From assembly GCF_006345805.1 (NCBI RefSeq), contig NC_043013.1, positions 19,282,001-19,346,000 of the forward strand: a stretch of DNA of 64,000 nucleotides, read 5' to 3'. Position 1 is the first letter of the stretch; the number at the start of each line of letters is the position of its first letter. Positions 1 through 36,365 of the stretch are shown here, in pieces. This stretch comes from Octopus sinensis. Lineage: Eukaryota. The notes below the pieces were generated by a model. That model was not told the DNA's origin and searched no databases. It saw only the letters and a list, made by a program, of their open reading frames with translations. The translations under genes and the position numbers were made by a program.

Positions 1-3000
1 TTGTAGTTGATGGTGTAGTAGGGGTATCTGTTATTGCTGTAGTTTGTGTTGTCTTAGTAGTACCAGCAGTTACGTTAGTTTGTGTTGTAGTTGTTGGTGA
101 TGTAGTACTGTCTGTTGTTGTTGATGCTGATGTAGTTGCTGATGTACTAGTGGTGCCTGCTGTTGGTGTAGTTTGTGATGTAGTTTCAGCTGTAGTAATA
201 CTACGCATAGCTGCTGGCGTATCAGTAGTGCCTGATGTTGCTGTAGTTTGTGATGTAGTTGCTGGTGCAGTAGTGATGTCTATTGTTGCTGTTGTTTGTG
301 ATGTAGTTGGAGGTGTGGTAGTAGTATTTGCTGTTACCGTAGTTTGTGCTATAGTTATGTCTGTGGTAGTTGTACCTGTTACTGCCGTAGTTTGTGTCGT
401 AGTTGCTAGTGTTGTAGGGGTGCCTGGCATTGCTGTGGTGTGTGAAGTAGTTGTTGGGCCGTTGTAGTGTCTGCTGTTGTTGATGCTTGTGGTGTAGTTG
501 TTGGTGTAATATCTGTATCATTCAGTGCTGTAGTTTGTGATGTAGTTGATGACGTAGAAAGAGTACCCGCTGTTACTTTGCTTTGTGGTGTAGTTACTTG
601 TATGGTACTAGTGTCGGTCGTTGGTGTAGTTTCTGATGTAGTTGCTGATGTACTAGTGGTGCCTGTTGATGATGTAGTGTAAGATGTAGTTGCTGGGGTA
701 GTAATGATACTTGTCCTTGCAGCAGTTTGTATTGTAGTGGGTTGTGTAGTAGTGGTGCCCACTGTTGCTGTAGTATGTGTCATAGTGTGTGGTTTAACAG
801 TTGTGCCTAGTGTTGCTGTAGTTTGCGTTGTAGTGAGTGGCATGGTAGTGGTACTCACTGTTACTGTAGTTTGTGGTGTAGTTGTTGATGTTATAGTGGT
901 GCCTTTTGTTGGCGTAGTTTGTGTTGTAGTTGTAGGTGTACTAGTGGTTCCTGGTGTTGCAGTCTGTGGTGTAGTTGCTGGTGTGATATTACTGCCTTTT
1001 GTTGGTGTACTTTCTGATGTAGTTGCTAGTGTAGTAGTACTACCATCTGCTGTTGCTCTTGTTTGTAATGTAGTCGATGGTGTTGTACGGGTGCCTGTTG
1101 TAGTTTGTGATGTAGTTGTTAGTGTAGTAGGAAGGTTTGTTTTTGCTGTTGTCTGTGACGTAGTGTTTGCTGTAGCTATGGAGTCTTTTGTCACTGTAGT
1201 TCGTGATGTAGTTTTGACCGTTGTTGCTGTAGTTTGTGATGTAGTAGTGGGTGCAATTTTGGTTTGTGCTGTAGTTGTTTGTGTAGTAGTAGCTCCAGGT
1301 GTTGCTGCATTCTCTGGTATAGTTGTTTGTGTGGTAGTAGTGCCTTCTGTTGCTGCAGTTTGTGATGCAGTAGCTGGTTTAGTAGTGGTTCCTGCTGTTG
1401 CTGTAGTTTGTGGTGTAGTTTTGGTGACTCTTGTTGCTGTAGTTTGTGTTGTAGTTGTTGGTGTAGTAGTAGTAGCGCCTGTTGTTGCTGTAGTTTCTGG
1501 TGTAGGTGTGTGTGTGGCAGTAAAGCCTTCTGTTGCTGTAGTTTGTGGTGTAGTTGTTTGTGTAGTAGTATCTCCTGGTGTTGCTGTAGTTTCTGGTGTA
1601 GTTGTTTGTGTGATAGTAGTGTCCTCTGTTGCTGTGGTTTGTGATGTAGTTCCTGATTTAGTAGTGGTTCTTGCTGTTGCTGTAGTTTGTGGTGTAGTAG
1701 GTGTAGTTTCTGACGTAGAAACACCAGTTGTTGCTGTAGTTTGTGCTGTAGTTTCTGGTGTAGTAGTAGCGCCGGTTGTTATTGTAGCTTCTTGTGTAGT
1801 TGTTTGTGTGGTAGTAGTGCCTTCTGTTGCTGCAGTTTGTGATGTAGTAGCTGGTTTAGTAGTGGTTCCTGCTGTTGCTGTAGTCTCTGATGTAGTTTTG
1901 GTGATTGTTGTTGTTGTAGTTTGTGTTGTAGTTGTTGGCATTGTAGTTGCGCCTGTTGTTGCAGTAGTTTCTGGTGTAGTAGTAGCGCCGGTTGTTATTG
2001 TAGCTTCTTGTGTAGTTGTTTGTGTGGTAGTAGTGCCTTCTGTTGCTGCAGTTTGTGATGTAGTAGCTGGTTTAGTAGTGGTTCCTGCTGTTGCTGTAGT
2101 TTGTGCTGTAGTTTCTGGTGTAGTTGTTTGTGTGATAGTAGTGTCCTCTGTTGCTGTGGTTTGTGATGTAGTTGTAGGTATAGTAATGGTTCCTGCTGTT
2201 GCTGTAGTTTGTGGTGTAGTTGTTTGTGTGGTAGTAGTGCCTTCTGTTGCTGCAGTTTGTGATGTAGTTCCTGATTTAGTAGTGGTTCTTGCTGTTGCTG
2301 TAGTTGTGGTGTAGTAGGTGTAGTTTCTGACGTAGAAACACCAGTTGTTGCTGTAGTTTGTGCTGTAGTTTCTGGTGTAGTAGTAGCGCCGGTTGTTATT
2401 GTAGCTTCTTGTGTAGTTGTTTGTGTGGTAGTAGTGCCTTCTGTTGCTGCAGTTTGTGATGTAGTAGCTGGTTTAGTAGTGGTTCCTGCTGTTGCTGTAG
2501 TCTCTGATGTAGTTTTGGTGATTGTTGTTGTTGTAGTTTGTGTTGTAGTTGTTGGCATTGTAGTTGCGCCTGTTGTTGCAGTAGTTTCTGGTGTAGCTGT
2601 TTGTGTGGCAGTAGAGCCTTCTGCTGCTGTAGTTTGTGATGTAGTTGTAGGTATAGTAATGGTTCCTGCTGTTGCTGTAGTTTGTGGTGTAGTAGGTGTA
2701 GTTTCTGACGTAGAAACACCAGTTGTTGCTGTAGTTTGTGCTGTAGTTTCTGGTGTAGTAGTAGCGCCGGTTGTTATTGTAGCTTCTTGTGTAGTTGTTT
2801 GTGTGGTAGTAGTGACTTCCGTTGCTGTAGTTTGTGATGTAGTTGCTGGTGTTGAAGTTTTATCTGTTGTTGCTGTACTTTGCGAAGTATTTGCTGGTGT
2901 TGTAATGGTGCCTGTTCTTGCTGTTGTTTGTGATGTAGTTGTTGGTGTTGTCCGTGATGTCTCTGGTGTAGCTGTGGTGTCTGTTGATGCAGTGGTTCGT

Positions 3001-3400
3001 GATGTAGTGGTTGGTGTAACAGTGGTGCCTGTAGTTTGTGATGTAGTTGTTTGTGTTATAGTTTTGTCTGTTGCTATATTTTGTGATGTTGTGTCTCTAA
3101 TTGAAGATTTGTGTGTCACTGCTGTCGTTGGTGACGGAGTAGTCGGAGTAACCATGGTGTCTTTCGTTGCTGTACTTTGCATTGTATCATTTTGCTGCGG
3201 TATTCGCAACTTTTCTGATGCAGTTGTCGGTATATTCGTTGTAATTTCTGTTACTGTTTGTGTTGTAGTGATGTTTGTCTTTGCTGTAGCGTCTGGTGTA
3301 GTTGTTGGTGTAATATTGATGTATGTTGTTGCTCTAGTATGTGATGTAGTAGTAGTAGTAGTTGGCGTATTCATATTTTTCATTGTTGCTGTTGTTTGTG
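1..3400 (-). repeat. Coding repeat with ~16-aa (48-bp) unit TTTSQTTATxGTTTTP and higher-order duplications
   Basis: gtagtttgtgatgtagt motifs recur. The segment encoding QEATITTGATTTPETTAQTTATTGVSTSETTPTTP occurs three times (gacgtagaaacacc near 1712, 2329 and 2707). Confidence 0.85.
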
Positions 3401-6400
3401 ATGTAGAGATGTGTGTAGTGGTTTTAGATGGTTCCTGTGTCATGTTGGCTGGAATGTTAAATTTTGTGGAATGCTTCGAGAAATCTTCTGTAATGTGTTG
3501 AGAAGACGTATACATTTCTGTAGACGGAGTCGGTGGAAGAGAATTAGGGAATGCTAAGTTTGATGATTCTTCATGCGTGGAAAATTCTGAAGTCTCATCT
3601 ACAGATGAAAGTGTAACGGTTGAAGATGTTAGATCTTGTGCACCTTGTGTTGTAATAGAGGGTGTCTGTTTATATTCTAATGAGCCTGTACTTGTCGATG
3701 GTAGAGAAGTTTCTCCTCCTGTTGTGACAGTACCTGTTTCAAGGTTGCTGGATGTTTCGTATCTGACTGTAGAGGGTGAATGCGCTAAGGGTGTGCTTGC
3801 TTCAGTTGTACGTGGCTTAGTTAGTGACATTCTATTTGTGGTATGCAATATTGTAAGTGTTGATGTTGCTGTGGTTGTTGTTGCTTCTGTTGTGGTAGGT
3901 GTTGTGCTTGCAGTTGTGGCAGATGTTGGTCCAGAGATGGTTGCAGTTGTTTGTTGTGTAGTGATTGTTGTTGGTTCCCTTGCTGCTGCTGTTGACACTC
4001 GTTCTTTAGTGCTTAATGTTGAGGTTGGAGTTGGTGCTGCTTTTGTAGCTGTTGTTGTTGTACCTGATGTAGTTGTAGATGTTGGTTTAATTGTGGTTGC
4101 TATGGTTGGTGTTCTGATTGTTGTTGGTTTTGTTGTGGTTGTTGCTTGTGATGACATTGTAGGTTCTGTTGCGGTTGTTAATGTTGGTTCTAATGTGGTT
4201 GTTGGAACTAGTCTGTTTGTAATCGATTCTATGGTGGTTGTTGTTCGTTCTGTTGTGATTGTAGTTGGCGGTTCTGTTGTGTTTGTTGTCAGTTCTGCAG
4301 TGCTTGTTGCTCGTTCTGTTGTGATTGTGGTTGATAGATCTGTGGCGGTTGCTGTCGGTTCTGTAGTGGTTGTTAATAGTTCTGTTGTGGCTGTTATTGT
4401 TGGTCTTGTGGTTGTTGTTGATGATGATGTACTTGCTGGTGGTGCTGTAGTGTTTATGGACAGTAGTGTTGCGGTTGTTGTTGGTTGTGGTGACGTTATT
4501 GTAGATTCTGATCTGGCAGTTGGTGATGTTGCTTTTGTAATGGTTGTTAATATTGGTTCTCTTGTTCTTGGTTTTGGCTCTATTATAGTTGTTGATTTTG
4601 TTGTGATTGTTTCTGGTTCTATTGTGGTTAGTTTTAGTTTTCTTGTAGTTTTTGATGATTCAGTAGTTGTTGTTGTTGTTGGTTCTCTTGAGATTGTTGT
4701 TTGTGTTGTGGTTATCGGTGCTTTGGCAGTGGTTGCTGCTGGCTCTGTCGTGATTGTTGTTGTTGGTATTGTTTTCGTTGTTGTTTGTTCTGATGTGGTT
4801 GATGTCATTGGTTCTGTAGTGATTATAGTTGTTGGCTCTGTTGTGGTGGTGATTATTGGTTCTGTTGTGACTGCTGTTTGTTCTGTTGTGGCTGATGTCT
4901 GCGTTGTGGTTGTTGTTGGTTCTCTTGTCATTGTTGTTGTTGTTGGTCGTGTTGTGGTTGTTGATGGTTCAGTTATGGTTGTTTCTTGTGTTGTGATTGT
5001 GGTTGTTGGTCTTGTGATTGCTGGCCCGGTTGTGATTGTAGTTGTTGGTCTTGTTGGGGTGGTTGTTAGTTCTGTGGCCGTTGCTGTTTTTGTTGTGGCT
5101 GGTTGCGATGTGATTGTGGCTGTTGGTCCTATTTTGGTGGTTGTTGTTTGTGTTGCAGCTGTTGTTGCTTCTGTTGTGATTGTGGCTGTTGGTTCTATTG
5201 TAGTGGTCGTTGGTGCTGTGGGTGTTGCTGTTTGTGTTCTGGGTGTTGTTGGTGTTGTGGCTGTTTGTACTGTTGGGTGTGTTGTTGGTTTTGTTTCAGT
5301 TGTTGGTGCATCTGTTGTGGTTGTTGTTTCCGTTGTGGCTATTGTTGGTTCTGTGGTGGTTGTTATTTGGTCTGTTGTGATTGAGGATTTTGATCCTGTT
5401 TTAGTTGTTGATGGTTTTGTTGTGATTGTGGTCTTTGGTTCTGTTGTGGCTTTTAGTTCTGTTGTGATTTTTGGTTCTGCTGTACTTGTTTGTTTCGTTG
5501 TGACTGTGGTTGTTGGTCCTGTTGTGGTTATTGTTGGTTCTGTTGTAGATTTTGGTTCTGTTGTAGTTGTTGGTCCTGTTGTGGTTGCTGGTTTTGATGT
5601 GATTGCGGTTTTCGTTTCTGTTGTTGTGGTTGTTGGTTCCGTGGTGGTTCTTATTTGTGTTGTGGTTGTTGGTTCCGTGGTGGTTTGTGTTGTGGTTGTT
5701 TGTGTTGTGGTTGATGTTAGTTCTGTGGACGTTGCTATTGGTTGTGTTGTGACGGTAGTTGCTGTTTCTTCAGTCGTGGATGCGTCTCTTGGTTTCATTG
5801 AGTTTGTGGTTGTTGCTTCTATTATAGTTGCGGTTATTGGTTCTATTGTGGTTGTTGTTGGTTCTGTGGTGGTTTTTGGCATGGTTGTTATTTGCGGTGA
5901 CGTTGTTGGTGGTTCAGTTGTGGCCGTTGTTAGTCCTGTTGGGATTATTGTTGTTGGAGCTTTTGTGATTGTTGTTTGATCTGTTGTGGTTGTTACTGGA
6001 GTTGTTGGCTCTCTAATGGTTGTTGTTGGTCCTGTTGAAGTTGCTGAAGGTGGAGATGTTCTAGTTGTTGGTATTGTTGTTATCGTTCTTTGATCTGTTG
6101 CAGTTGATTTTGGTGGTAATGTTGTTGCTGATGATTCATTTGTGCCTGTTGTTGACGTTGCACTTGGCGTTGTGGTTGGGGTTGTTGTTGCTGTTAGTAT
6201 AGTGGTTGTTGGTGTTTCCGATGTATTTGTAGATGTTGGTTCTCTTGTGGTCGCTGTTGCAAGTTGTAGTGTGGTTGTTGCTGGCATTGGTGCTGTTGTA
6301 ACTGGTTGTGTTCGGGTTGTGGTTGTTGTTGTTGTTGTTGGTAATGATATTGGTTTTGTTATGGTCTTTAATTGTGCTGTTGAAGTACTTGTTGTTGGTG

Positions 6401-9400: not shown

Positions 9401-12400
9401 GGGCCTTTGTTGTTGTTGGTACATGAGTAAATATTAATTGATCTGGTGTGGTTGTCGATAGTGTTATGTCTGTTGTTGGTTCTATTGTGCTTGTTCCTTG
9501 TTCTATTGTCGTTGTTGATTCTGTTGTGATTGAGGTTATTGATAGTCCTGGTGTGGCTGTGTTTGTTGTGCTGGTGTTGTTGTTGGATTTGTTGTGGTTG
9601 TTGTTAGATCAAGTGTTGATATTGCTGATTCCTCTGAGGATGTTCTAATTGGTCCTATTTTGTTTGTTGCTTCTACTGATGTGGTTGTTGACGCTTCTGG
9701 TGTAATTGTTGTTGGTTCTGGTCTGGTTGTTGTTGGTCCTGCCTTTGTTGTTGTAGGATCCAGCTTGGTTGTTGTTTGTTCTGGAGTGGTATCTGTTGTT
9801 TCTGCTTTTGACAATGTCGGTTCTGCTGCAGTTGTTTTAACTCCTGGTGAGGCTGTTGCTGGTTCTGTTGTTGTTGGTCCAGGTACAGAGGTAGTAGGTT
9901 CTGATTTGGTTGTTGTTGCTTCTGTTATGGATGTTGGTTCTCTTGTCGTTCTTGTCGGTTCTGTGGTGGTTGTTGGTTTTGTTGAGGCTGTTGGATTTGA
10001 TATAGTTGTTGTTAGTTTTGGTGCAGTTGCTTCTGATTCTGTTGTTGTTTTTGGTTCGATTGTGGTTGTTGCTGGTTCTGTTGTGGTTGCTATTGGTTTT
10101 GATTCAGACGTTGTTGGATGTGATATGGTTGTTGTTGGTTTTGATTCAGTTGTTGTTAGTTTTCTCGCGGTAGTTGCTGATTCTAATGTAATCGTTGTTG
10201 GTTCGGTGGTGATTGTTGTTGGCTGCATTGTGTTTGTTGTTGGTTCTGTTGCAACTGTGGTGGGGTTTGTTGTTGTCATTGGTACTGTTGTGGGGTTTAT
10301 TGTTGTTGTTGTTGTTGCCGTAGTTGCTGGAACTGTTGTAGTTGTTGCTGATTTTGTTGTGGTGCTAATTGGTTCAGTTGTAGTTGTTGTTGGTACTGTT
10401 GTGATTGTTGTTGGTTGTGTTCTGGTGGTTGCTGGTCCTCTCATGATAGTTGCGGTTGTTATTGGTTTTAGTGTTGTTTCCTGAGTTGTGGCTGTAGCTG
10501 ATGGTCTTGTTATGGTTGTTCTTCGTTCAGTTGTGGTTGGTGTTGGTTCTACTGTGGTTATGGTAGGTTTTGGTGCAGCTGTTGTTGACTTGGTTGTGGT
10601 ATTTCTTGGTTCTGTTGTGGTCGTTGTTGCTTCTGTTGTGGTTATTGGTTTTGGCGTGGTTATTGTTGGCTCTGTTGTTGTTGGTTCTGCTGTGGTTGTT
10701 CGTTTTCGTGTGGTTGTTATTGGTTCTATTGTTGCTACAAGTGGTTTTGGTTCAGTTGTTGTTGGATTTAGTGGTGTTGTTTTTGGTTCATTTGCGGTTG
10801 TTGTTGTTAGCTTTGTCGTGCCAGTTGGAGGTTCTGCTGTGGCTGTTGTTGGTTCCGTTGTTACTCGTTCTGTCGCGGTTGTTGCTGTTGTTGGCAGTTT
10901 TGAGGATGTTGTTGGTTGTGTATTGAGTGTTGTTGGTTCTGTTATGGTTGCTGTTGGCTTTGACATGGTTGTTGTTGGTTCTCCTGTGCTGCTTGTTGGT
11001 TTTGTTGTAGTTGTTCTTGGTTTTGTAGTGGGAGTTGGTGATCCTGTTGTTATTGTTGTTGGTTTTGCTGTGGTTGTTGTTGCTTCAGTAGTGGTTGTTG
11101 TTGGTTCTGTTGTGGTCGTTGCTGCTTTTACTGTGGCTGTAGTTGGTTGTGTATTTGTTGTTGTTGGTTCTGTTGTGATCATCGTTGGTTCTTTACTTGG
11201 TGTGGTTAGTTTTGTTGTGGTTGTTGTTGGAATTGTTGTGATTGTTCTTGGCTCCGTAATGGTTGTTGTTGGTTCTGCAGTTATTGTTTTGGTTTCTGTA
11301 GTGGGTGTTGTTGGTTCCGTAGTAGTGGTTGGTTCTGTTGTAGTCGTTGTTGATTCTGTAGTAGTAGAAGTTCTTGGTTCTGTTGTGGCTGTTGTTGGTT
11401 TTATTGAGCTTGTTTGTTCTGTAGTGGTTGTTGGTGGTTCTGTTGTGGTTGTGGTTGGTCCTGCTGTGGTTGTTGTTGTTTCTGTAGTGGTTGTTGGTGG
11501 TTCTGTTGTTGTTGGTGGTGGTTCTGTTGTGGTTGTTATTTGTTCTGTTGTGGTTGTTGTTCCTTCTGTTGTGGTTGCTGTTGGATTTGTTGTGGTTGTT
11601 GTTGGTTCTGTTGTGGTTGTTGTTGGTTCTGGTGGGATTGTTGTTGGTTCTGTTGTGGTTGTTGTTGGTTCTGCTGTGGTTGTTGTTGGTTCTGTTGTGG
11701 TTGTTGTTGGTTCTGTAGTGGTTGTTGCTTGTTCAATTGTGGTTGTTATTGGTTCTCTTTTGGTTGTTGTTGGTTCTGTTGTGGTTGTTGTTGGTTCTGT
11801 AGTGGTTGTTGTTGGATTTGTTGTGATTGTTGCTTGTTCTGTTGTGGTTGTTATTGGTTCTCTTTTGGTTGTTGTTGGTTTTGCTGTGGTTGTTGTTGGT
11901 TCTGTTATGATTGTTGTTGGTTCTGTAGTGGCCATTGTTGGTTTTATTGTGGTCATTGGCTGTGTTATGGTTGTTGCTGGTTTTGTTGTAGTTGTTGTTG
12001 GTTCTTTTGTGGTTGTTCTTGGCTTTGTTGTGGTCGTTGTTGGTTCTGTAGAGGCTGTTTTTGGTTTTGTCGTGGTTATTGGTTCTGTTATGGCTGTTGT
12101 TGGTCTTGTGGTTGTTGTTGTGATTGTTGTTGGTTCTGTAGTGGTTATTGATTCTTTTATTGTGGTAATTGGTTCTGATGTTGGTGTCGTTGGTCGTGTT
12201 GTAGTTGTTGCTGGTTCTGTTGTGATTAGTGTTGGTTTTATTGTGGTTATTGGTTCTGTTGTGGTTGTTCTTGGCTCTGTTGTTGTTTTTGATTCTGCTG
12301 TGGTTGTTGTTGGTTCTGTAAGGTTTATAGTTGGTTCTGTTGTGGTTGTTGTTGATTCTGTAGAGGGATTTCTTCGTTTTGTTCCTGTTATTATTAGCTC

Positions 12401-15400
12401 TGTTGTGGTTGTTGTTGGTTTTGTTGTTGCTGTTCTTTTTGTTGTCTTGGTTGTTGGTTTCGATTCTGTAGTGATTATTTTTGGTCTTATTGTGGTTATT
12501 GCTTCCGTTGTGGCTGTTGTTGGTTTTGTTGTGGTTGTTGCGATTTTTGTTGGCTCTGTAGTGGTCATGTTTGCTTTTAGTGTGGCCGTTGGTTCTGTTA
12601 TGGTTGCTATTGGTTTTGTTGTGGATGTTGTTGATTTTGTTGTCAGTGTTGTTGGTTTTGTTGTGATTGTTGTTGGTTCTGTAGTGGTCATTCTTGGTTC
12701 TGTAGTTGTTGTTTGTTCCGTTGTAGTTGTTTTTTGTTCTGTTGCAGATGTTGTTGGTTCTGTAGAGGGTATTTTTGGTTCTGTTGTGGTTGTTCGCTCT
12801 ATTGTAATTGTTGTTGGTACTGTAGTGCCTGTCGTTAGTTTTGTTGTTGTTGTTGGTGGTTCTGCAGTGCTTGTTATTTGTTTTGTTATGGTTGTTGTTG
12901 GTTCTGTTGAGGTTGCTGTTGGTTTCGTTGTGGTTCTTGTTGGAACTGTAGTGGGAGTTGTTGGTTTTGTTGTGGTTGCTGTTGTGATTATTGATGGTTC
13001 CGTTGTGATTGCTGTTGATTTTGATGTGATTCTTGGTTCTGTTGTGGTTGTTGTTGGTTCTGTTGTTGTTGTTGGTTTTGTTCTGGTTATTGTTGGTTCT
13101 GTTGTGGGTGTTGTTGGTTCTGTTTTGGTTGTTGTCGGTTCCGTTGTGGTAATTGTTGGTTTTGTTGTGGTTGTTGATAATATAATGGGTGTTCTAGGTT
13201 CTGTTGTGGTTGTTGGTTCTGTTGTGGTTGCTGGTTCTGTTGTGATTTTTGGTTCTGTAGTGGGTGTTGTTGGTTGCATGGTGGTTGTTCTTGGTTTTGT
13301 TGTGGCTGTTATAGGTTCTGTAGTAGTTGTTTTTGGTTCTGTTGTGGTCATATTTGGTTCTGTTGTAGTGAGAGTCGTTGGTTCTGTTGTGGATATTGTT
13401 GTGGTTGTTGTTGGTTCTGTTGTGGTCTTTGCTAGTTCTATTGTAGTTGTTTTTGATTTTGTTGTGATTGTTGTTGGTTCTGCAGTGATTATTGTTCGTT
13501 TTATGGTGGTTATTGGCACTGTTGTTGTTGTTGTCGGTTCTGTTTTGGTTGTTGTTGATTCTATAGCGGCTGTATTTTGTTTTGTTGTAGCTATTGTTGG
13601 TTCAGTAGAGGTTGCTTTTTGTTTTGTTGTGGATGGTGGTTCTATTTTAGTTGTAGTTGTTTTTGTTGTGATTATTGTTGGTACTGTAGTGTGTGTCGTT
13701 AGTTCTTTTGTGGTTGTTGTTGGTTTTGTTGTGGTTGTTATTGGTACTGTAGTGGGAGCTGTTGGTTTCGTTGTGGTTCTTGTTGGTACTGTAGTGGGAG
13801 TTGGTGGTTTTGTTGTGGTAGTTGTGATTTTTGATGGTTCTGTTGTGATTGTTGTTGGTTGTGATGTGGTTGTAGGTTCTGTAGTTGTGGTTGTTGTTGG
13901 TTGTGCAGTGGTTGTTGTTGGTTTTTCTATGGTTATTCTTGGTTTTGTTGTGTCTGTTACTGTAGTAGTTGTTGTTGGTTCTTTTGTAGTGAGAGATGTT
14001 GGTTTTGTTGTGGTTGTTGTTATGATTGTTGCTGGCTCTGTATTGATTATTATTGGTTTTCCTGTGGTTGTTGGCTGTGTTGTGGTTGTTGGTTGTGTTG
14101 TGGTTGTTGGTTGTGTTGTGGTTGTTGGTTGTGTTGTGGTTGTCGGCTTTGTTGTGGTTGTTGTTTCCGGTGTGATTGTTGGTTCTATTGTTGATATTGG
14201 TATTGTTGTGGTTGTTGGTTTTGTTGTGGCTGTTGGTCCTGTTGTGGATGATAGTGTTGTTGTAGTTGTTGAGTCAGTTGTGGGTGTTGTTTGTGTTGTA
14301 ATTATTGGTTCGGTTGTAGTTGTTGTTGTGATTGTATTTGGTTCTGTAGTCGTTATTGTTGGTTTTATTGTGGTTATTGGTTCTGTGATGGTTGTTGTTG
14401 GTTCTGTTGTTGTTGTTCTCAGTTTTGTTGTGATTGTTGTTGGCTTTGTTGTCATTGTAGTTGTTTCTGTTGTGATTGTTGTTGTTCTTGGTTTTCTTGT
14501 GGTTGCTGTTGTTTCTGCTGTCGTTATTGTTGTTGTTTCTGTTGTGGTTGCTGTTGGTTTTGTTGATGGTTCTTTAGTAGTTATCGATGATTTTATTGTG
14601 GTTATTGGTTCTGTCATGGTTGTTGTTGGTTCTATTGCAGTTGTAGTTGGTTTTGTTGTGTTTGTTGCTGGTACTGTAGTGCGTGTCGTTAGTTCTGTTG
14701 TGGTTGTTGTTGGTTCTGCAGTGGGTGTTGTTTGTTTTGTTGTGGTAGCTGTGATTATTGTTGGCTCTGTTGTGGTTGTTGCTGGTTTTGTTGTGGTTGT
14801 TGGTTCTGTAGTGGATGTTGTTGGTTCTGTTGTTGTTGTTGTTTCTGTAGTTGATGTTCTTGTTTCTGTTGTAGTTGTTGCTGGTTCTGTTGTGGTTGTT
14901 GGTTCTGTAGTGGTTGTTGTTGGTTCTGTTGTGGTTGTTGGTTTTGTTGTGGTTGTTGTTGGTTGTGCAGTGGTTGTTGTTGGTTGTGATGTGGTTGTAG
15001 GTTCTGTAGTTGTGGTTGTTGTTTCTGTAGCGGGTGTTGTTGGTTGTATGGTGGTTGTTGTTGGTTTTGTTGTGGTTGTTGGTTCTGTAGTGGTTGTTGT
15101 TGGTTCTGTTGTGGTTGTTGTTTGAGTTGTAGTTGCTGTTGGTTCTGTTGTGGTTGTTGGTTCTGTAGTGGTTGTTGTTGGTTCTGTTGTGGTTGTTGTT
15201 TGAGTTGTAGTTGCTGTTGGTTTTGTTGTGGTTGTTGTTTCTGTAGCGGGTGTTGTTGGTTGTATGGTGGCTGTTGTTGGCTCTGCTATGGTCGTTCTTG
15301 GTTTTGTTGTGTCTGTTGTCGGCTCTATTCTGGTTGTTGTGAGTTTTGTTGAAGTTGTTGTTGGTTCTGCAGTGATTGTTGTTGGTTCTGTTGAGTGAGG

Positions 15401-18400
15401 TGTTCGTTTTGTTGTTGTTATTATTGGTTCTGTAGTGGTTGTCGCTGATTTTGTTGTGGTTGGTGTTGGTTCTCTTGTGGTCAGTTTTGGTTCTGTAGTG
15501 GTTGTTGTTGGTTTTGTTGTGGTTGTTGCTGCCTCTGTTGTAGGTAGTGTTGGTTCTGCTTTGGCTGTTGTCTGTTCTGTTGTGATTGTTGTTGGTTCTA
15601 TTGTGTTTGTTGTTTTTTCTGTCGGCCTTGTTGGTACTGTTGTGGTTAATTTGGTGATTGTTCTAGTTGCTGTTGGTTCTGTTGTGGTTGTTGGTTTTGG
15701 CGTGGTTGTTGATTGTTCTGTTATGGTTGTCGCTGGTTCTGTCTCTGTTGTTGTTGGTCCTTTTGTGGTGGTTGCTGGTTTTCTTGTGGTTGTTGTGGGT
15801 TTTGGTGCAGTTGTTTCTGGCTGTGTTGTTGATGATGGTTTTGATGTGGTTGTTGCTCTTTCTGTAGTCATTTGAGTTGGTTGTGGTGTGGTTGTTTTTG
15901 GTTCCGATGTAGGTTTTATTGTTTGCGTTGTGGACGTTGTTGGTTCTACGGTTGTTGTTGCTGCTGCTGTTGTGGTTCTTGTTCGTTCCACTGTGGTAGT
16001 TGTTGACTCTATTGTATATGGTTGTGACTTCGATAGGGTAGTTGTTGCCTGTGATGTTTTTGATTCTGTTGTAGTTGCTAGTTTTGGTTTTGGTTCTGTT
16101 GTGGCTATTGTTGCTTCCGGTGTAGTAGTTGTTGGTTTTGGTGTGATTTTTGTTGGATTTGTTGTAGATGATTTTGGTACTGGTATGGTTGTTGCTGGTT
16201 TTGTTGTGGTTGACCTTGTTTGTCTTGTGGTTGTTGTCGTTGATTTTGGTGCGGTTGTTGTTGGTTCTGTTATAGCTATTGTTGGATTTGATAAGATTGT
16301 TGTCGGCTCAGGTTCAGCTTTTGTTGGGACTGGTCTAGTATTTATTTGTTGTGTTGTCATTGTTGCTGATTCTGCTGTAATCGGTGATTTTTCTGCCGTT
16401 CTTGCTAATTCTGTTGTGGATAATTTTGTTTTTGGTGTGGTTGTCATTGGTATTGTGACGGTGGTGGCGGCTGGTTCTGTTGTGGTTGTAGTTTGTTCTG
16501 TTGATGATGTTGTTGGTTCTACCGTGACTGTTATTGGTTTCGTTGCGGTGGTTTTAGGTTCTGTTATGGTTATTGATTCTGTTGTGGTCATTGTTGGTTT
16601 TGTTGTTGTCGTTAGTGGTGGTTTTGCTGTTGCTGTTGTTGTTGTTGTTAATGGTGGTTTTCTTTTTGCGATTGTTGTTGATCCTGTTGTTCCTGTCGGG
16701 TGCGTGGTTGTTGTTCTTGTTTCCGCTTTGGTCGGAATTGGTTCTCTTCTGATTGTTGTTTCTGTTGAAGTTGCTGACGGTTCGAGTGCAGTTTGTGTTA
16801 GTTTTGCTACGGTTGTAGTTGGTTCTGCTGTGGTTGTTTTTTGTACTGTTGTGGTTGGTTTTGGTTCTGCTGTGACTGTTGGTTCTGTTGTGGTTGTTGT
16901 TGGCTCTGTTGTGGTTTTAGTTGGTTCTGCTGTGGTTGTTTTTTGTACTGTTGTGGTTGGTTTTGGTTCTGATGTGGCTGTTGTTGGTTCTGTTGTGGTT
17001 GTTGTTGATTCTCTTCTGGTTGCTGTTTGTTCTGTCGAAGTTGTTGACGGTTCGAGTGCAATTTGTGTTAGTTTTATTTTGGTTGTTGTTGGTCCTGCTG
17101 TGATTGTTTTTGGTTCTGTTGTCGTTGTTGTTGCTTTCATTGTTGTGGTGGTTGTTGCTGATTCTGTTGCGATTGTTGTTGGTTCTGTTCTAGTTGTACT
17201 TGGTTTTGGTGTAACTGTTGCCCGATTCGGTGCAACTGACGTTGCTTCGGTTGTGGTTGTTGTTGGTTCTTTTGTAGTTGTTGTTGCTTTTGTTGTGTTT
17301 GTTATTGGTTCTGTTCTGGTTTCTGTTAGCTCTTTTGTGGTTGTTAGTTCTGTTGTGGTTCTTGATTCTTTTGTGGTTATTGTTGGTTTTCTTGTGGTTG
17401 CTGGTTCTGTTGTAGTTGTTGGCTTTGCTGTGGCTGTTGGTTCAGTTTTGGTCGTTGTTGGTTCCGATGTGGTTACTGTCGGTTTCGTTGTGGTTGTTAG
17501 TACTGTGGTGGTTGGTGCTTCGGTTGTGGTTAATGGTTTTGTTGTGATTGTTGGTTCTGTCTTGGTTGCTGTATGTTTTGTATCTGTTGGCTCTGTTGTG
17601 GTTGTCGGTCTTCGATTTGTTGCTGGTTTTGTTGTGGTTGTTGGCTTTGTTGTGGTTCTTGGTCCCGTTGTGGTTCTTGGTTTTATTGTGGTTGTTGGCT
17701 CTGTTGTGGTTGTTGGTTTTCCTGCTATAAATGTCTTCGTTGTGATTTTCAGTTCTGTTGTTGTTTTGTTTGTGGTTGTTGGTGTTGTTGTGGTTGTTGT
17801 TTTTCCTGTGGTTGTTGGCTCACTTGTAGTTGGCTCTGTTGTTGTTATTGGTCTTTTTCTGATATTTACCTCCGTTGTGGTTGTTGGTTCTGTTGTGGCT
17901 GTCGGTGTGGTTGTGGTAGCTGTCTTTGTTGATGTTGTTCGCCTTTCTTTGGTTGTTGGTTCTGTTATGGTTGTTGGTTGTGTTGTGGTTGTTGGTTCCG
18001 TTGTAGTTGTTAGTTCTATCGTGGTTGTTGGTTTTGCTGTGATTGTTGGCTCAGTTGTGGTAGATGACTTTGCTGTGGTTGTTTGTTCTGTTGTAGTTGT
18101 TGGTACAGTTGTAGTTGTTAGTTTTGCTGTTGCATTTAGTTTTTCTGTGGCTGTTGGCTTTATTGTGGTTGTTGCTTTTGTTGTGGTAGTTGGCACTATT
18201 TTGGTTGTGGGTTCTGTTGTGATCATTGGTTCTTTTGTTGTTGTTTGTTCTGCTGTGGTTGTTGGTTCTGTTTTGGATTTGGGTTCTGGTGTTGTTTCCG
18301 TTGTGGTTGTCGGTCTTGTGGTTGTCGGTCTTGTGGTTGTTGGTTCTGATGTAATTGTTGGTTGTGTTGTGGTTGCAGGCAATTTTGTGGCTGTTGGCAT

Positions 18401-21400
18401 TATTGTGGTTGTTGGTATTGTTGGAGTTGTGGTTTCCGGTGTGGTGGTTGGCGCTGTTGTGGTTGTTGGCTTTGTTGTGGTTGTTGATTCTGATTTAGTT
18501 GTTGGTTTTGTTGTGGTTGTTTGTGTTGTCGTGGCCATAGCTTTTGTTGTGGTAATTGGTTTTGCTGTGGTTGTTAATTTTGTTGTGGTTGTTGTCTTAT
18601 CTGTGGTATTTATCTCTGATGTGGTTGTTGAACCTGTTGTGATTGTTGGTTCTGGTGTGGTTGTTGGTTCTGATGTGGTTGTTCGTTTTGCTATGGTTGT
18701 TGGTATTGTGGTGGTTGTTGAATTTGTTGTGGTCGTTGGTCTTGTTGTGGTCGTTGGTATTGTTGTGGTTGTTGGTATTGTTGTGATTGTTGCTTCTTTT
18801 GTGGTTGTTGGTATTGTGGTTGTTGGTTCTGTTGTGGTTGTGGGTTCTGTTGTGGTTATTGGTATTGTTGTGGTCGTTGGTATTGTAGTTGGCTCTGTTG
18901 TAGTCTTTGGCTTTGTTGTGGTTGTTATTTCTTTTGTGGTTATCGGTTTTGTTGTTGGTCCTATTGTGGTTGTTGATTCTGTTGTAGTTGTTGGTTCAGT
19001 TGAGGCATTTGACTCTGTTGTTGGTATTGGTTCTGTTGTCGTAGTCGGCTCTCTTGTAGATGTCGGTTCGGTTGTGCTTGTAGTTTTTGTTTCGGTTGTT
19101 GGTTTTCCTGTGGTAGTGTGCTGTCTTATGGGTGTTGATTCTATTGTCGTTGGATTTATTGTGGCTGTAAGTTTTCCTGTGGTTGTTGATCTTGTTGCCG
19201 TTGTTGGTTCTGTTGTGGTCCTTGATTTAATTGTGGTTGTTTGTTTTTTTGTGGTTGTAGGATTTGGTGCGATTGTTGGTTTTTCTGTGGTAGTGGGCTC
19301 CGATGTGGTAGTTGTTACCTCTGAAGTGATTGTTGGGTTTGTTGTGGTTCCTTGTTTTGTGGTGGTTGTTGTTTCTGTTGTGGTTGTCGGTTTTGGTGTG
19401 GTTGATGGTTTTGTTCTAGTTGTTAGCCTTGTTGTGGTAGTTGGCTCAGTTGCGGTTGTTGTCGGTTGTGTTGTGGTTGTTGATTTTGTTGTGCTTTGTG
19501 GTTTTTGTGTGGTAAATGGCTTTGTTGTGGTTATATGCTCTGTTGTGGCCATTGGTTTTGTAGTGGCTGCTTCTTCTGTGGTAGTTTGCTTTGCTGTAGC
19601 AATTGCTTCTGTTGTGGTTGTTAGTTTTGTTGCGGTTGTTGTTTCTGTTGTATTTGTTGGTTCTGTTGTAGGTGTTGTTTCTGTTGTAGTTGTTGGTTCT
19701 GTTGTAAATTTTGGTGCTGTTGTGGTTGTTTGTTTAGTTGTGCTTGCTTTTTCTGCGTTAGTTGTCTCTGGTGTGGTTGCTGGTTCATTTTTAGTTCTTG
19801 GTTCAACTGCGGTTGTGGTTGTAGGTTCAGTTGTAGCTGTTGGTTTTGTTGTGGTTGTTGGTTCCATTGTGGTCTTTGGTTCTGTTGTTGTTGTTGGTTC
19901 CATTGTAGTCTTTGGTTCTGTTGTTGTTGGTTCCATTGTGGTTGTTGGTTTTATAGTAGTTGTTAGTTCTGACGTGGTTATTGTTTTCCCTATGGTATCT
20001 GACATTGTTGCTGTTGTTGGCTCTGTTGTAGTTGCTGGTTGTCCTGTGGTAGTTGGTTCTGTTGTGGTTATTGGTTCTTTTGTAGTTATTGGTTCAGTTG
20101 TGATTATTGGCTCTGTTGTGGTTGTTGGTTTTTCTATAGTATTTGTCTCTGTTTTGGTTGTTGGTTGTCTTGTGGTTGTTGAGTCTGTTGTGGTTGTTTG
20201 CTCCGTTGTGGATGTTGACTCTGTTTTGGTTGTTGGTTTTTGTGTGGTTGTTGGTTCAGTTGTTGTAGTTGACTCTGTTATGGTTGTTGGTTCTGTTGTG
20301 GCTGTTGATTTTCCTGTGGTTGTTGGTTTTGTTATGACTGCTGGTTTTCCTGTTGAAGATGGCTTTGTTGTGGGTGTTGTTTCAGTTTTGGTTGCTGGTT
20401 TTGTTGTGGCTCTTCTTGTTGCTCTTGTGTTTGTTCTTGTTTCTTTTGTAGTTGTTGGTTCAGTTGTGCTTGTTGTATCTGTTGTGGTTAATTCTACTGC
20501 GGTTGTCCTTGGTTCTGTTTTGGTTGGTTGTTCAGTTATGGTTGTTGTTGTTTGTCTTGTGTTTATTGTCTTTACTTCTTTTGTGGTTGTTTTTGCTGTT
20601 GGTTTACTAGTTGGTTCTGGTGTTGTTGCTACTCTTGTTGAAGGTAATGTCGTTTTTGGTTCTTTTGTTTCAGTTTTGTTTGTTTCTGTTGGTTCCGTTA
20701 TTTGTGGTTCAGTTATGCTTGATGTTGTTCTTGATGTTTCTTTTGTGAGTGTCGTAATTTGTTCAGTTGCCATTGATGGCTCTGTTTTGAGTGTTGTTGT
20801 TGGTTCTGTTTTGTTCTTTCTTTTTGTTAGTTGTGTTGTTCCTGGTACTGTTACGGTCCTTCCTTTCCCTGCTGTGTTTTTTCTTGATGCGGTTATTGGA
20901 GTTGCGGTTGCTGTTGTTGGTACTGTGGTTGCTGTTGTTGGTACTGTGGCTGCTGTTGTTGGTACTGTGGTTGGTACTGTGGTTGCTGTTGTTGGTACTG
21001 TGGTTGCTGTTGTTGGTACTGTGGTTGCTGTTGTTGGTACTGTGGTTGGTACTGTGGTTGCTGTGTTGGTACTGTGGCTGCTGTTGTTGGTACTGTGGTT
21101 GGTACTGTGGTTGGTACTGTGGTTGTTGTTGTTGGTACTGTGGTTGGTACTGTGGTTGTGTTGTTGGTACTGTGGTTGGTACTGTGGTTGCTGTGGTTGG
21201 TACTGTGGTTGGTACTGTGGTTGCTGTTGTTGGTACTGTGGTGGTACTGTGGTTGCTGTTGTTGGTACTGTGGTTGCTGTTGTTGGTACTGTGGTTGGTA
21301 CTGTGGTTGGTACTGTGGTTGCTGTGGTTGGTACTGTGGTTGCTGTTGTTGGTACTGTGGTTGCTGTTGTTGGTACTGTGGTTGGTACTGTGGTTGCTGT

Positions 21401-24400
21401 TGTTGTTACTGTGGTTGCTGTTGTTGGTACTGTGGTTGCTGTTGTTGGTACTGTGGTTGCTGTTGTTGGTATTGTGGTTGGTACTGTGGTTGCTGTTGTT
21501 GGTACTGTGGTTGGTACTGTGGTTGCTGTGGTTGGTACTGTGGTTGCTGTTGTTGGTACTGTGGTTGCTGTTGTTGGTACTGTGGTTGCTGTTGTTGGTA
21601 CTGTGGTGCTGTTGTTGGTACTGTGGCTGCTGTTGTTGGTACTGTGGTTGCTGTTGTTGGTACTGTGGTTGTTGTTGTTGGTACTGTGGTGCTGTTGTTG
21701 GTACTGTGGTTGGTACTGTGGTTGCTGTTGTTGGTACTGTGGTTGCTGTTGTTGGTACTGTGGTTGGTACTGTGGTTGCTGTGTTGGTACTGTGGCTGCT
21801 GTTGTTGGTACTGTGGTTGTTGTTGTTGGTACTGTGGTTGCTGTTGTTGGTACTGTGGTTGCTGTTGTTGGTACTGTGGTTGGTACTGTGGTTGGTACTG
21901 TGGTTGCTGTGGTTGGTACTGTGGTTGCTGTTGTTGGTACTGTGGTTGCTGTTGTTGGTACTGTGGTTGGTACTGTGGTTGCTGTTGTTGGTACTGTGGT
22001 TGCTGTTGTTGGTACTGTGGTTGCTGTTGTTGGTACTGTGGTTGCTGTTGTTGGTATTGTGGTTGGTACTGTGGTTGCTGTTGTTGGTACTGTGGTTGGT
22101 ACTGTGGTTGCTGTGGTTGGTACTGTGGTTGCTGTTGTTGGTACTGTGGTTGCTGTTGTTGGTACTGTGGTTGCTGTTGTTGGTACTGTGGTTGCTGTTG
22201 TTGGTACTGTGGTTGCTGTTGTTGGTACTGTGGTTGTTGTTGTTGGTACTGTGGTTGCTGTTGTTGGTACTGTGGTTGCTGTTGTTGGTACTGTGGTTGC
22301 TGTTGTTGGTACTGTGGTTGCTGTTGTTGATGCTAGCTGAATTGTAACCGCTGTTGTGTCATGTTGCATTGTAGTTGATCTAAAGCCAGTTTGTAATGTA
22401 TTTGTTGTTAAGACAGGTTGTATTGTAGCTGTTGTTAAATCTGGTTGTATTGTTCCACTTGTTGTGTAAGGCTGTGTTGTACTTTTGTCAACTTGTGTTC
22501 TAGCTGTTGTTATGTCGGGTTGTGTCATAGTTGTCGCTATAGCGGGTTGTGTGGTACCTATTTTTGTGTCAGATTGCATTGTAGTTGTTAAGCGAGATTG
22601 TTTTTGAGCAGTTGTCATATCAGGTTGTGTTGTAGCTATTGTTGCTTCAGATTGCGTAGGATCTGTTGTTATGTCGATTTGTGTTAAACCTAACGTTGTT
22701 TCACTTCGAGTCTTATCTATTGTTATGTCAGATTTTATTGTACCTATTGTTGAGAAAGGTTGTGTTGTAGCTTTTGTTTTCACATGTTGTGTTGTAGCCG
22801 ATGTTACATCCGAGTTTGCTGTAGTAATTTCCTTATCATGTTCTGTTGAAGATGTTGCTACGTCTAATTTTGTTGTTCCTGTTATTGTATCATGTTGTAT
22901 TGTAGCTGTTGTTACATCAAGCTGTGTTTCATCTATTGTTGTTTCTTGCTGTGCTGTAGCTGTTGTTATGTCTATTTGCGTTTTAGTTGTTGTAGTTATT
23001 TCGTGAGGTTGTGTCGTAGCTATTGTTATGTCAGGTTGTATTGTAGCTGTTGTTGTGTGATGTTGTGTTGTATCTGTTGTGATTTCAGGTTGTGTTGTAG
23101 TTGTTGTATGAGGCTGTTTCGTAGCTATTGTTATGTCAGGTTGTGTTGTAGCTGTTGTTGTGTGATGTTGTGTTGTATCTGTTGTGATTTCAGGTTGTGT
23201 TATAGTTGTTGTATGAGGCTGTTTCGTAGCTATTGTTATGTCAGGTTGTGTTGTAGCTGTTGTTGTGTGATGTTGTGTTGTATCTGTTGTGATTTCAGGT
23301 TGTGTTATAGTTGTTGTATGAGGCTGTTTCGTAGTTATTGTTATGTTAGGTTGTGTTGTAGCTGTTGTTGTGTGATGTTGTGTTGTATCTGTTGTGATTT
23401 CAGGTTGTGTTATAGTTGTTGTATGAGGCTGTTTCGTAGCTATTGTTATGTCAGGTTGTGTTGTAGCTGTTGTTTTGTGATGCTGTGTTGTATCTGTTGT
23501 GATTTCAGGTTGTGTTATAGTTATTGTATGAGGCTGTTTCGTAGCTATTGTTATGTTAGGTTGTGTTGTTGCTCTTGTTGTGTAAGATTGTGTTGTAGTT
23601 GTTATGTGAAATTGTGTTGTCGCTGCTGTAGCTGTTGTAACAGACTGTGTTGTATCCGCTGTAATGTCAGTTTGTGATGTAGCTGTTGCTGAGTCAGGTT
23701 GTGGTGTAGCTGTTACGTGATGATGTGTTGCAGCTGTTGTTAAGTCAGATTGTGCTGTCGCTCCTGTTGTGTGAAGTTTTGTTGTATCAGTTGTTGTATC
23801 AAGTTGTGTAGTCGCTGTTATGTCATCTTGTATTGTGGATGTTGTTATGTCAGTGCTTGGTCTACTTGTTGTGTCATGTCGTGTTGTAGTTGTTACGTCA
23901 GATTGCGTTGTAGGTATTGCTATATCGGGTTGTGTTGTAACTGTTGTTATTGTGTGTCTGTGTGTTATTGCTGGAGTATGACTATAAGTTGTTGGTTTGC
24001 GACTATGTTTTTCTGTTGGTGTGTGAGTTGGTATGTTTTCTGATGTGTAACTGGACGATGCTGTTGGTGCGTGATCGGGCGTAGTTACTGTTGTGTGATT
24101 TGTTGCGGTTGAATTCGTACTAGTGTGGGATTTTGTTGGCATGTGACTAGATGTTGTTGGTATGTGACTGGGTTTTGCTAGTGTGTGACTAGATGTTATT
24201 GGTGTGTAACTGGATGTAATATGATTGGATGCTGTTGTCAGTGTGTGATTGCGTTTTGTCGTCCTAAATCCTCTAGTAATGGTTGTCGTCGGTCTAGAAC
24301 TAGTAGTATCAACCTGGACTGGACTAGACACTTTTGTTAAAAATAAACTACTTATTGGTGATGTTGCTATTGTTGATGTCTCTACTGAGCTTATTTGTTG

Positions 24401-26100
24401 AGAATGTTCGTTATTTTTTTCAGTTTTTGATGCTAATGTATTCACCGGAATAAATATCGTCTCTTCTGTAGGACTTGACTCCGTCGTTTGAACACTGTCT
24501 GTTCTTGTTGTGGATTCTATCACATTAGTAACACGTGGTGTATCACCCCGCCATAAGGATGATCTTCGTTTCGGGCTATTTACAGAGGTGCTATCGGTTG
24601 AACGTGTAGCCGTTTGTCTTGTCGGTGCGAAAGAAGTTTTTTGTACAGTTTTGTCTTCGGCAGTATTGGTTATGTCTTTACGAAACGGCTTGGTATTGTC
24701 TATACTCGGAGTAACTTCTGATGGAGTAATACTGGCTGGCTCTACGAAAATACTGTTATTTTTAGTGGACGACATTTCAATATGTTTTGTAAAAATGGCC
24801 GAAGATGTTGACCCAACTATTTCTCTAGTGGTGTTTTCCTTTGGCATCACATGGGATGTGCTAGAGCTAGGCTGAGGTAAAGTTTGCTTGAGTTTACTCT
24901 CAGTGCTCTCGGTTGATGTTTCTGGCTTTGATGATAAATGCTGCGGCATATTTACATGTGTAGAAGTTGTGTTAAAATAATTCGATGTGGTAGGCGCTAC
25001 CGAATTTAAAATGAGATCATTGGTTGTTGCAAAGGATTCTTTAGTTTCTCTTCCGCTTGGTACTGTTGCTGTTGTTGTTGTTGTTGTGGTGGTGTTTGTC
25101 GTCGCCTTCGGTGACGATGTTGTTGATGTTGATATATTGTGTGAGTCAGTGATCTGATCCCTAATGCGGCCAGCCGTCATATTAGGCAGTTTGTTGTGTG
25201 TGGATGGTGTGGTGGCTTCCTGACTTGTTCCAGACAATTGGTCGCCGGGCAGCGATGAGACATTTGAAATAAGTTCCTCGTTTGTAGAAAGCGACGAAGA
25301 CGATGATAATGATAACGGTGATGGTGATGCAACTGCAGCTGACGTTGTTGGTGACGGCGATGTTGATGATGGTGATGATGCTGACGACGATGGTGTTGTT
25401 GATGCTGATGAATTAAAAGATGATAGTCGATGTGTAGCAGAGGAGGTTACTGGGTTTACGGAAGATAAAATCGTTGGTTCATCAGTGGAAGGAGTAACCA
25501 TATTGGGGCTCTGAGAAATCAAAGTATCTCCGTCATTTTTACCGCCAAAAATTCCAGAACCATCTTCCATATAACTTATATTAAATAAATCATTCATGGT
25601 GTCCTCCTGGAAAATTGATTCTGCATTATCGATTGTCTTCGCTTTGGATGCATCACTTGCAGATAAATAATTGGTAATATAGGCACCGGGGTGTTCACTA
25701 CTAAATTTCTTTTTTCTATCACTGGGATTATTGAAGTTCTCGCTCGTTAATAACTTTCTCGTCTGAAAAATATCAATCTTCTCAGAACGGTCTTTCTTGG
25801 ACGGAATCTCTCTGTTGCCCATACTTTCCTTGCGCTCAAGCGACGATTTTTCGTGACTTAAAGAAACAATTGCATTATTCCAGAACTTATTTCTTGTAGA
25901 AGATATCACTTCTAAATTCCTATCATGCTTAAGTTTGGAAATTAATCGCTTTGAGTAGAATCTTTTCTGTTGTCTCTGCTCTACTGGAACACGCTCCGTT
26001 TTCAAGCTCGCTATTCCAGTGATATTCATATATAAATACATTTTCGAAACTTCTAAAGTATCTTGATTGTTTTCCGCATATAATTTTGGTATCAATAAAA
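1..26100 (-). CDS. Giant single coding exon of a mucin-like PTS (Thr/Pro/Ser-rich) protein; 3' end lies outside the window
   Basis: ORFs 9536..26095 (5519 aa), 1995..8945 and 406..1941 join into one Thr-rich reading once single-base deletions at ~9569, ~2304 and ~457 are corrected; the frame stays open to base 1. The ORF-track start at 26095 is TTG, not ATG. It sits 5 nt after a splice acceptor (minus strand ttttttatttaatatag|TT TTA TTG ATA CCA, AG at 26102-26101, phase 1). No intron-like interruption is seen in 26 kb. Confidence 0.88.
3850..20800 (-). repeat. Degenerate TTTEP/TTTKP coding repeat field with roughly 6-aa, 7-aa and 8-aa periods
   Basis: Translation shows TTTEPT-type 6-mers (~17300-20500), TTTTEPT 7-mers (~10000-17300) and looser ~8-mers below 9 kb. 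The plus strand is dominated by ggttctgttgtggttgtt. Block boundaries are approximate. Confidence 0.85.
20903..22328 (-). repeat. Near-perfect coding minisatellite, 21-bp unit (VPTTATT) interspersed with 12-bp VPTT variants
   Basis: The plus-strand unit ggtactgtggttgctgttgtt is repeated almost without substitution. Six 1-bp deletions lie at about 21064, 21159, 21243, 21608, 21691 and 21783. Confidence 0.95.
23005..23575 (-). repeat. Coding tandem repeat, 105-bp (35-aa) unit TTQPDITIATKQPHTTTITQPEITTDTTQHHTTTA, about 5.4 copies
   Basis: The motif tgtgatgttg (or a variant) recurs at 23056, 23161, 23266, 23371 and 23476, a 105-bp spacing. The unit is built from 9+8+9+9-aa subunits within a wider degenerate 9-aa TTQxDxTTA region (~22330-23950). 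Confidence 0.9.
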
Positions 26101-26483
26101 CTATATTAAATAAAAAATGTTAAAAACCAAAACATATATTTTATTTTCTATTTATTATATTAATTTTCTAGATTTGAATTTAATTTAGTGTGTATTTAAA
26201 AATACTAACATCACAAACTATATTAAGAAAGTAAATATTTAATTTGATTTTCAAATTATGATTTTGCACAAATACAACAAACACGAAAGGGAATTACATG
26301 AAGTTAGAGTTATAAGAAAACATACAAACATTATATGAAATAATATCAAATAAGACACATTAAATAACAATAACACACACATGTGTATGTATGTATATGC
26401 CATGATACTACAAAAATAGCTTAGGTAGACGGCTGGACTTTCCAGGTAGGAGAGGATAGTCAATAAAACCTTCACAAGTTTAC

Positions 26484-26533
26484 CATTGGTACTTTTATCC
26501 AGCAAAGTACAATTGTTTGCTGCTGGATACGAA
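26484..26533 (-). CDS. Candidate 50-nt exon immediately upstream of the giant exon (xSYPAANNCTLLDKSTN-V)
   Basis: Acceptor t11gtctcttctacgttgtcag| and donor AATG|gtaaac. The exon is 1+48+1 nt, so it ends in phase 1 and G+TT gives Val, in frame with LLIPKLYAEN of the giant exon across a 383-nt intron. Confidence 0.5.

Positions 26534-36307: not shown

Positions 36308-36365
<58 letters not shown>

Follow-up and report, generated by a model that had tools for sequence, protein, structure and literature searches.

A likely intact giant mucin-type gene with a threonine-rich exon of at least 26.1 kb in Octopus sinensis

Mucins carry regions with a high content of proline, threonine and serine (PTS regions), which are defined by a Ser + Thr content of at least 40% and a Pro content above 5%; O-glycosylation renders these regions stiff, extended and protease-resistant, and their sequences diverge strongly (PMC4948705). 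A further criterion for a mucin is that PTS repeats make up more than one third of the protein (PMC2515642). In humans, exon 2 measures 15,873 bp in MUC3A and 39,267 bp in MUC3B, and the PTS exon of MUC12 measures 32,428 bp (PMC9578598). A preprint gives 27,843 bp for the longest MUC4 allele and up to 23,080 amino acids for MUC12, and reports that the MUC19 frame is broken in the CHM13 assembly (PMC13345508). The locus described here lies in a stretch of 64,000 nucleotides of Octopus sinensis DNA (NC_043013.1, positions 19,282,001 to 19,346,000; hereafter the window), which likely holds an intact giant mucin-type glycoprotein gene composed of a predicted signal exon and a single Thr-rich exon that measures 26.1 kb or more; of the nine breaks in its frame, one is a sequencing error and the others likely are.

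Other mucins differ in how their PTS regions are framed. Gel-forming mucins have three N-terminal VWD-C8-TIL units, with CysD inserts in Lophotrochozoa (PMC4948705). Mucin-like proteins of Drosophila span 300–23,000 amino acids, and six mucins in that fly are described as having no conserved domains (PMC2515642). MUC7, MUC22 and MUC16 are listed as orphan mucins, a class whose lineage-specific members arise time and again (PMC9417175). Mucin-4-like and mucin-19-like proteins have been listed in proteomes of octopus skin mucus (PMC11431876).

Positions 1–26100 of the window are Thr-rich coding-type DNA on the minus strand. A strong strand skew runs unbroken over this region and ends at about 26100, where a minus-strand AG acceptor (26102-26101) is flanked by a T-rich tract. 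Runs of six or more TA, CA/TG or GA/TC units are absent from 1–26100 and number 58, 40 and 10, respectively, in 26101–64000; the other 37.9 kb of the window therefore holds 108 such dinucleotide microsatellites and the exon none, with a sharp drop at the exon edge. An initial annotation had described a Thr-rich block without TA microsatellites that reaches the acceptor at 26101, and both the boundary and the absence of TA runs hold. It had also described one uninterrupted reading. Six-frame translation instead gives four overlapping stop-free stretches in three frames of the minus strand, separated in the assembly by one-base losses that the annotation had missed:

1..26100, minus strand: giant Thr-rich coding exon; at least 26.1 kb and about 8,700 codons, truncated at the window edge
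26119-9539, minus strand: stop-free stretch of 5,527 codons
9608-1998, minus strand: stop-free stretch of 2,537 codons
2472-409, minus strand: stop-free stretch of 688 codons
517-2, minus strand: stop-free stretch of 172 codons

The longest stop-free frame spans 5,520 codons, against a mean of 282 and a maximum of 407 in shuffled sequence (n = 100, 300-nt blocks), so composition alone is not enough to explain it. Codon-position bias is strong, and the second position is C in 69% of codons. When the exon is translated as a read-through with X placed at each of the nine shifts, the approximately 8,700 codons contain 43.8% Thr, 10.2% Pro and 6.4% Ser. Ser + Thr thus amounts to 50.2% (4,373 residues), and both this value and the Pro content lie above the thresholds for a PTS region. 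The read-through contains no stop, 45 N-X-S/T sequons and no Cys, the last as the initial annotation had noted. It contains no membrane helix (top 19-residue hydropathy of 0.94), and the exon segments scanned hold short basic runs only, with no canonical R-X-K/R-R site. All data are compatible with a single exon. Apart from its short repeat arrays, the exon consists of unique sequence, 8 kb of which is backed by independent contigs; expansion by the assembly is therefore not the main source of its length.

Frame tracking with a codon model (penalty −16) places nine shifts, near 21784, 21689, 21606, 21241, 21161, 21066, 9571, 2309 and 459, and every one corresponds to a single missing base. Six of them lie within a 21-bp tandem array, where they cancel out without creating a stop and are therefore hidden within the longest open reading frame (ORF). 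Extra shifts at 25738 and 25665, which appeared under laxer penalties only, were taken as artefacts of a model trained on Thr-rich sequence; the closest protein record, described below, aligns in frame there.

The shift near 9571 was compared with contigs of four public runs (X1, X2, X11 and X14) over 2950–10950, an interval without repeated 31-mers. These runs represent at most three samples from two studies: X1 and X2 share a sample, possibly the source of the window itself, and X11 and X14 belong to the other study. All four carry an additional base, in contigs of 3,304, 3,590, 2,506 and 707 nt:

9559..9560, no strand assigned: base absent from the assembly; extra T behind 9559 in four of four runs

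The assembly is thus in error near 9571, and the frame is continuous from the 5,527- to the 2,537-codon stretch. For seven of the other eight shifts, the sequence was compared with sibling repeat copies. Adding one base made the local 16-mer match 6–38 sibling copies (22–38 for the six array shifts and 6 for the shift at 2309), compared with 0–1 for the unmodified sequence. At control positions, gains were seen at 0 of 124, 0 of 192 and 1 of 196 sites (1 of 512 overall). The shift at 459 lies outside both the sibling and the read comparisons. Seven of the nine shifts sit among repeated 31-mers, which reach 821 per kb at 21001–22000 and 618 per kb at 2001–3000, and short-read polishing fails in such repeat-rich parts. 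The eight breaks besides that at 9559 are likely sequencing errors as well.

Two further features of the assembly were observed. Seventeen TA arrays in 26101–64000 contain 59 doubled letters in 1,113 nt, which suggests that single-base indel errors of unpolished long reads are left over across the repeats of the assembly. Long contigs of X1 and X2, the runs from one sample, differ from the window at 7709, 8115 and 8811; these may be more assembly errors or alleles.

Upstream of the giant exon, a short predicted exon with its own splice signals would join it in frame:

27812..27875, minus strand: first coding exon (predicted), with 6 nt of 5′ untranslated region, ATG at 27869, 19 codons plus one base (58 coding nt)
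26101..27811, minus strand: predicted intron of 1,711 nt, GT-AG, phase 1, with stops in all frames; placed from sequence

The predicted exon is bordered by the acceptor TTGCAG and by the donor GTAAGT at 27811 (phase 1), and it would join 26100 in phase 1 with no stop at the join. It encodes a basic start followed by a hydrophobic core, with an 11-residue hydropathy peak of 3.2, and holds two Cys; the core would run on into the first residues of the giant exon. Among 22 candidates that extend from an ATG to a phase-1 donor within 26101–64000, this exon (27812–27869) is both the nearest and the most hydrophobic, the runner-up reaching 2.35. Together with the start of the giant exon, it likely encodes a signal peptide. 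As the exon has its own acceptor, a further non-coding exon upstream is implied; none was found upstream.

A single protein record resembles the start of the exon. UniParc entry UPI000695822F (P0001; 735 amino acids) aligns in frame with 655 of 737 positions identical (89%). It starts at the first codons of the giant exon, ends at the onset of the repeats and carries neither a start Met nor a signal peptide. It was the sole match to the first 230 amino acids among 1,295 candidates and again among 1.84 billion representatives, and it sits in a single-member cluster; it has the appearance of an incomplete gene model from a closely related species. The first 230 amino acids had no match in Atlas and none in metagenome contigs. 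The distal pieces 3009–3908 and 463–1572 returned no homologue in a weak search confined to proteins of at most 2,000 amino acids. Pfam gave nothing above cut-off for three exon parts, which included the first 733 amino acids and 3009–4208, and no N-terminal VWD domain was found in those 733 residues. A CFAP91 match (E = 0.002, 18.6 bits) fell under its cut-off of 27 and was rejected. No full-length record was present in the protein collections searched, two of these searches being limited to at most 2,000 amino acids. In the accessible part of the literature on octopus and SEA mucins, cephalopod giant exons and invertebrate single-exon mucins, no published description of this gene was found. 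The initial annotation had expected gene predictors to mask the exon as low complexity or to split it; splitting is plausible, because the sole relative in the searched databases is a 735-residue fragment without a start. Its proposal of a giant mucin-like exon whose product enters the secretory route is strengthened by the predicted signal exon, by the UniParc relative and by the read-confirmed base at 9559.

The public runs also bear on transcription. Abutting contigs of X2 (106 million letters) tile all of 2950–10950, and X14 (46 million letters) covers a large share; X1, a run of genome scale, comprises 2,720 million letters. Such full cover of a single-copy stretch by small data sets would fit RNA-seq and suggests that the exon is transcribed, with the qualification that the runs were picked because they hold the stretch and that no silent control region was compared. 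Net length differences in five long records were −3, −9, +3, −3 and +3, besides the 9559 base; these triplets are weak support for a maintained frame, since ACA-rich DNA slips by threes. The base differences (40 of 50 listed) introduce no stop. Nine of them, in a misaligned cluster at 10633–10655, were set aside; the 31 kept rows comprise 10 synonymous and 21 changing differences and 0 stops. A further nine were dropped as clustered, at contig ends or of minority depth, leaving 22 single-nucleotide polymorphisms (SNPs).

Several observations weigh against an intact, expressed gene. Of the 22 SNPs, 9 are synonymous and 13 changing, where about 30% synonymous would be expected (p 0.15–0.19), so there is no clear purifying selection; weak constraint on residue identity is usual in PTS regions. 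Slippage in ACA-rich DNA would be expected to produce triplet indels as well. None of the compared runs is recorded as RNA: the types of X11 and X14 are guessed, and X2 is labelled "DNA?"; the small-share and zero-share runs X19–X24 contribute no evidence. The run comparison spans 8 of the 26 kb and stops short of the splice junction. Sibling matching is blind to the difference between an assembly error and a recent true deletion. Protein records are stop-free by construction, so the UniParc relative weighs only through its unbroken length. No C-terminal domain is seen within the window, the C-terminus lying beyond base 1. The initial annotation had proposed a search for N-terminal peptides; peptide and motif look-ups gave 0 matches in those parts of two octopus proteome supplements (PMC10138644 and PMC10142993) that could be searched, and the search databases behind them may lack the protein.

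Three rival explanations were considered. The mucin gene may be real while 1–26100 comprises several large exons with stop-free Thr-like introns, or while alternative splicing removes large parts. The extent of the run comparison (2950–10950) and of the joints listed (15 of 414) leaves space for such an arrangement. Yet no AT-rich or microsatellite interruption occurs across the 26 kb, and X2 contigs abut over the whole compared interval. None of the 15 listed joints shows CT..AC ends, as would be expected for a minus-strand intron, the short side is at most 37 letters in all of them, and 10 recur in the genome-scale run X1. This explanation is considered improbable. A decaying or truncated gene, in which some of the one-base losses are real, appears less probable again. 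If the loss at 2309 were real, the protein would end near 1998 with a Gln/Leu/His tail, and genuine losses within the 21-bp array would add short Gln/Tyr-rich and Asn/His-rich blocks. The absence of any stop in approximately 8,700 codons speaks against decay, as does the uniformity of the nine shifts, all of which lack one base. The one shift reached by the read comparison proved to be an error. The 59 doubled letters in 1,113 nt of TA arrays are what unpolished long-read errors would be expected to leave. On the side of decay, the read comparison covered one of the nine shifts, the six array shifts sum to an in-frame change and the SNP ratio is near neutral.

The least credible explanation, to which very little probability is given, is that the region is a non-coding degenerate (ACA)n satellite whose frame is open by composition, or that it belongs to a Val-rich gene on the plus strand. 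A/C-rich DNA is stop-poor, and plus-strand ORFs of 2,154 and 1,546 codons are present. Shuffled sequences, by contrast, reach only 407 codons, 69% of second codon positions are C, and the charged N-terminus, the splice signals and the signal exon are all in phase. The Val-rich ORFs keep a fixed register to the Thr frame and mirror its Thr codons.

The favoured explanation remains an intact giant mucin-type gene, likely a lineage-restricted PTS mucin with a front end like that of MUC3/MUC12. Its exon encodes approximately 8,700 codons with 50% Ser + Thr, 10% Pro, no Cys and no membrane helix. The predicted signal peptide would take this chain into the endoplasmic reticulum. By analogy with other mucins, Golgi enzymes would then O-glycosylate many of the approximately 4,400 Ser/Thr residues and produce a stiff, hydrated bottle-brush. 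The peptide is estimated at about 0.9 MDa and the chain at perhaps 2 micrometres, at 0.25 nm per residue. With no N-terminal VWD or CysD domain and no Cys in the exon, this part cannot form disulphide cross-links of the gel-forming type, and polymerisation like that of gel-forming mucins would be excluded unless a C-terminus outside the window provides it. The product could serve as a lubricating, protease-resistant barrier.

How such a chain would end is a matter of conjecture. Tethering to an epithelial surface by C-terminal SEA, EGF and transmembrane exons, as in MUC3/MUC12, is a tentative first choice. It is suggested by the front end, which has the MUC3/MUC12 layout, and by a Ser/Thr-rich protein of O. 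vulgaris labelled mucin-3A-like (row 209 of the PMC10142993 supplement), whose later part may be SEA plus EGF. A secreted protein with a Cys-rich end is less likely, and a domain-free chain is slightly more doubtful. We would also give a rather low probability to an octopus-specific giant mucin of its own origin, perhaps derived from ACA-type simple sequence. Such a protein would have an orphan N-terminus and a mostly non-repeating, Cys-free exon extending well beyond the window, to a size close to or above that of the 39-kb exon of MUC3B; owing to assembly indels, it would be missing from proteomes.

Within the giant exon, six modules can be distinguished:

25500..26100, minus strand: end of the predicted signal peptide and charged, non-repetitive N-terminal segment of about 200 amino acids, of no known family; UniParc relative 90% identical here
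22403..23950, minus strand: 27-bp/105-bp repeat module rich in Thr, Gln, His and Asp; Tandem Repeats Finder (TRF) period 27 × 58 and period 105 × 5.7, 96%
20906..22329, minus strand: near-perfect 21-bp (7-amino-acid) tandem array with six cancelling one-base losses; TRF 84% matches
9600..20800, minus strand: degenerate Thr-Thr-Glu-Pro module with mostly non-identical copies; TRF 60–65% matches
3300..3950, minus strand: Ser/Glu-rich, less repetitive spacer within the PTS chain, from the translation
208..2948, minus strand: 48-bp-period Thr/Ala/Gln/Gly module with near-exact duplications; TRF, exact repeats of up to 293 nt

Thr-rich repeats account for approximately 24 of the 26 kb seen, a share above the one-third criterion; only a very large C-terminus beyond the window would alter this. 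Repeated 31-mers number at most 142 per kb in 10001–20000, and there are none in 17001–20000 or 3001–11000. Directly after the 21-bp array, a short Lys/Arg-rich patch (20750–20900, minus strand) departs from its Thr-rich surroundings; one may speculate that it is a protease site or a glycosaminoglycan-binding patch. The plus strand carries two ORFs of about half Val, at 10485–15122 (1,546 codons) and 15876–22337 (2,154 codons), which could mislead gene finders. They were rejected as genes: their register relative to the Thr frame is fixed, they switch where it does, and their Val is the mirror of Thr codons.

The flanking DNA contains several mobile or duplicated elements. A GC-rich (53–54%), 5′-truncated long interspersed nuclear element (LINE) occupies 46950–48750 on the minus strand, with a Pfam RVT_1 match (E = 2e-29) on 48702–47671, and, across changes of frame, extends as far as a Cys-rich end. 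These breaks may be genuine or stem from the assembly, and we take the element to be RTE-like. A scaffold gap of exactly 100 N lies at 46222–46321, and the sequence beyond it may be non-contiguous with the upstream region of the gene. A direct repeat of at least 300 nt with 99% identity (33310–33609 and 36363–36662, spaced by 3,053 nt) would reflect a recent duplication or an assembly duplication. One of its copies is enclosed by a 200-nt inverted repeat (91%; 36109–36308 and 37069–37268, arms separated by 760 nt), which may be a small non-autonomous DNA transposon. Short interspersed repeat copies (families D12 and D15–D17), presumably like octopus short interspersed nuclear elements, occur at 33847, 41540, 45212, 45679, 50459, 54812 and 57062.

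The locus belongs to a known kind of system and, over the length seen here, sets no size record. The initial annotation had presented it as a candidate for an undescribed system, with an exon that outsizes the largest well-known coding exons in humans; MUC3/MUC12 already have such a layout, with one giant PTS exon close to the N-terminus, and MUC3B (39,267 bp), MUC12 (32,428 bp) and the longest MUC4 allele (27,843 bp) all exceed what is seen here. Its description would extend the inventory of cephalopod mucus and glycocalyx by a very large, apparently unannotated glycoprotein, and it illustrates how one-base assembly errors can hide giant mucin genes from annotation and from proteomic databases. 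In that respect it resembles human MUC19 in CHM13, whose reading frame is broken by assembly indels.

Like gel-forming MUC2, MUC5AC, MUC5B, MUC6 and MUC19 and their lophotrochozoan relatives, the octopus gene has a large central PTS exon and a predicted secretory route. Unlike them, its PTS region directly follows a Cys-free segment of about 200 amino acids, with no CysD and no Cys past the signal peptide. It shares with the orphan or domain-less mucins (MUC7, MUC22, MUC16 and the PTS mucins of Drosophila) a definition by composition and a likely restriction to one lineage, although its origin is likely independent of theirs and no precursor was found for its N-terminal segment. The closest likeness is to human MUC3A, MUC3B, MUC12 and MUC17, in which one giant PTS exon, a single exon by inference in the octopus, stands close behind a short N-terminal part. 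No sequence homology to these proteins was found, and counterparts of their SEA, transmembrane and tail exons would lie beyond the window. In contrast with the variable number tandem repeat (VNTR) exons of human MUC3/12/17, the octopus exon is mostly degenerate, and its Thr content far exceeds Ser (44% versus 6%). A mostly degenerate, non-VNTR exon, the bias of Thr over Ser, the absence of Cys and an orphan N-terminus set this gene apart, and its 26-kb PTS exon, largely free of repetition, provides a convergent case to set beside human MUC3/MUC12.

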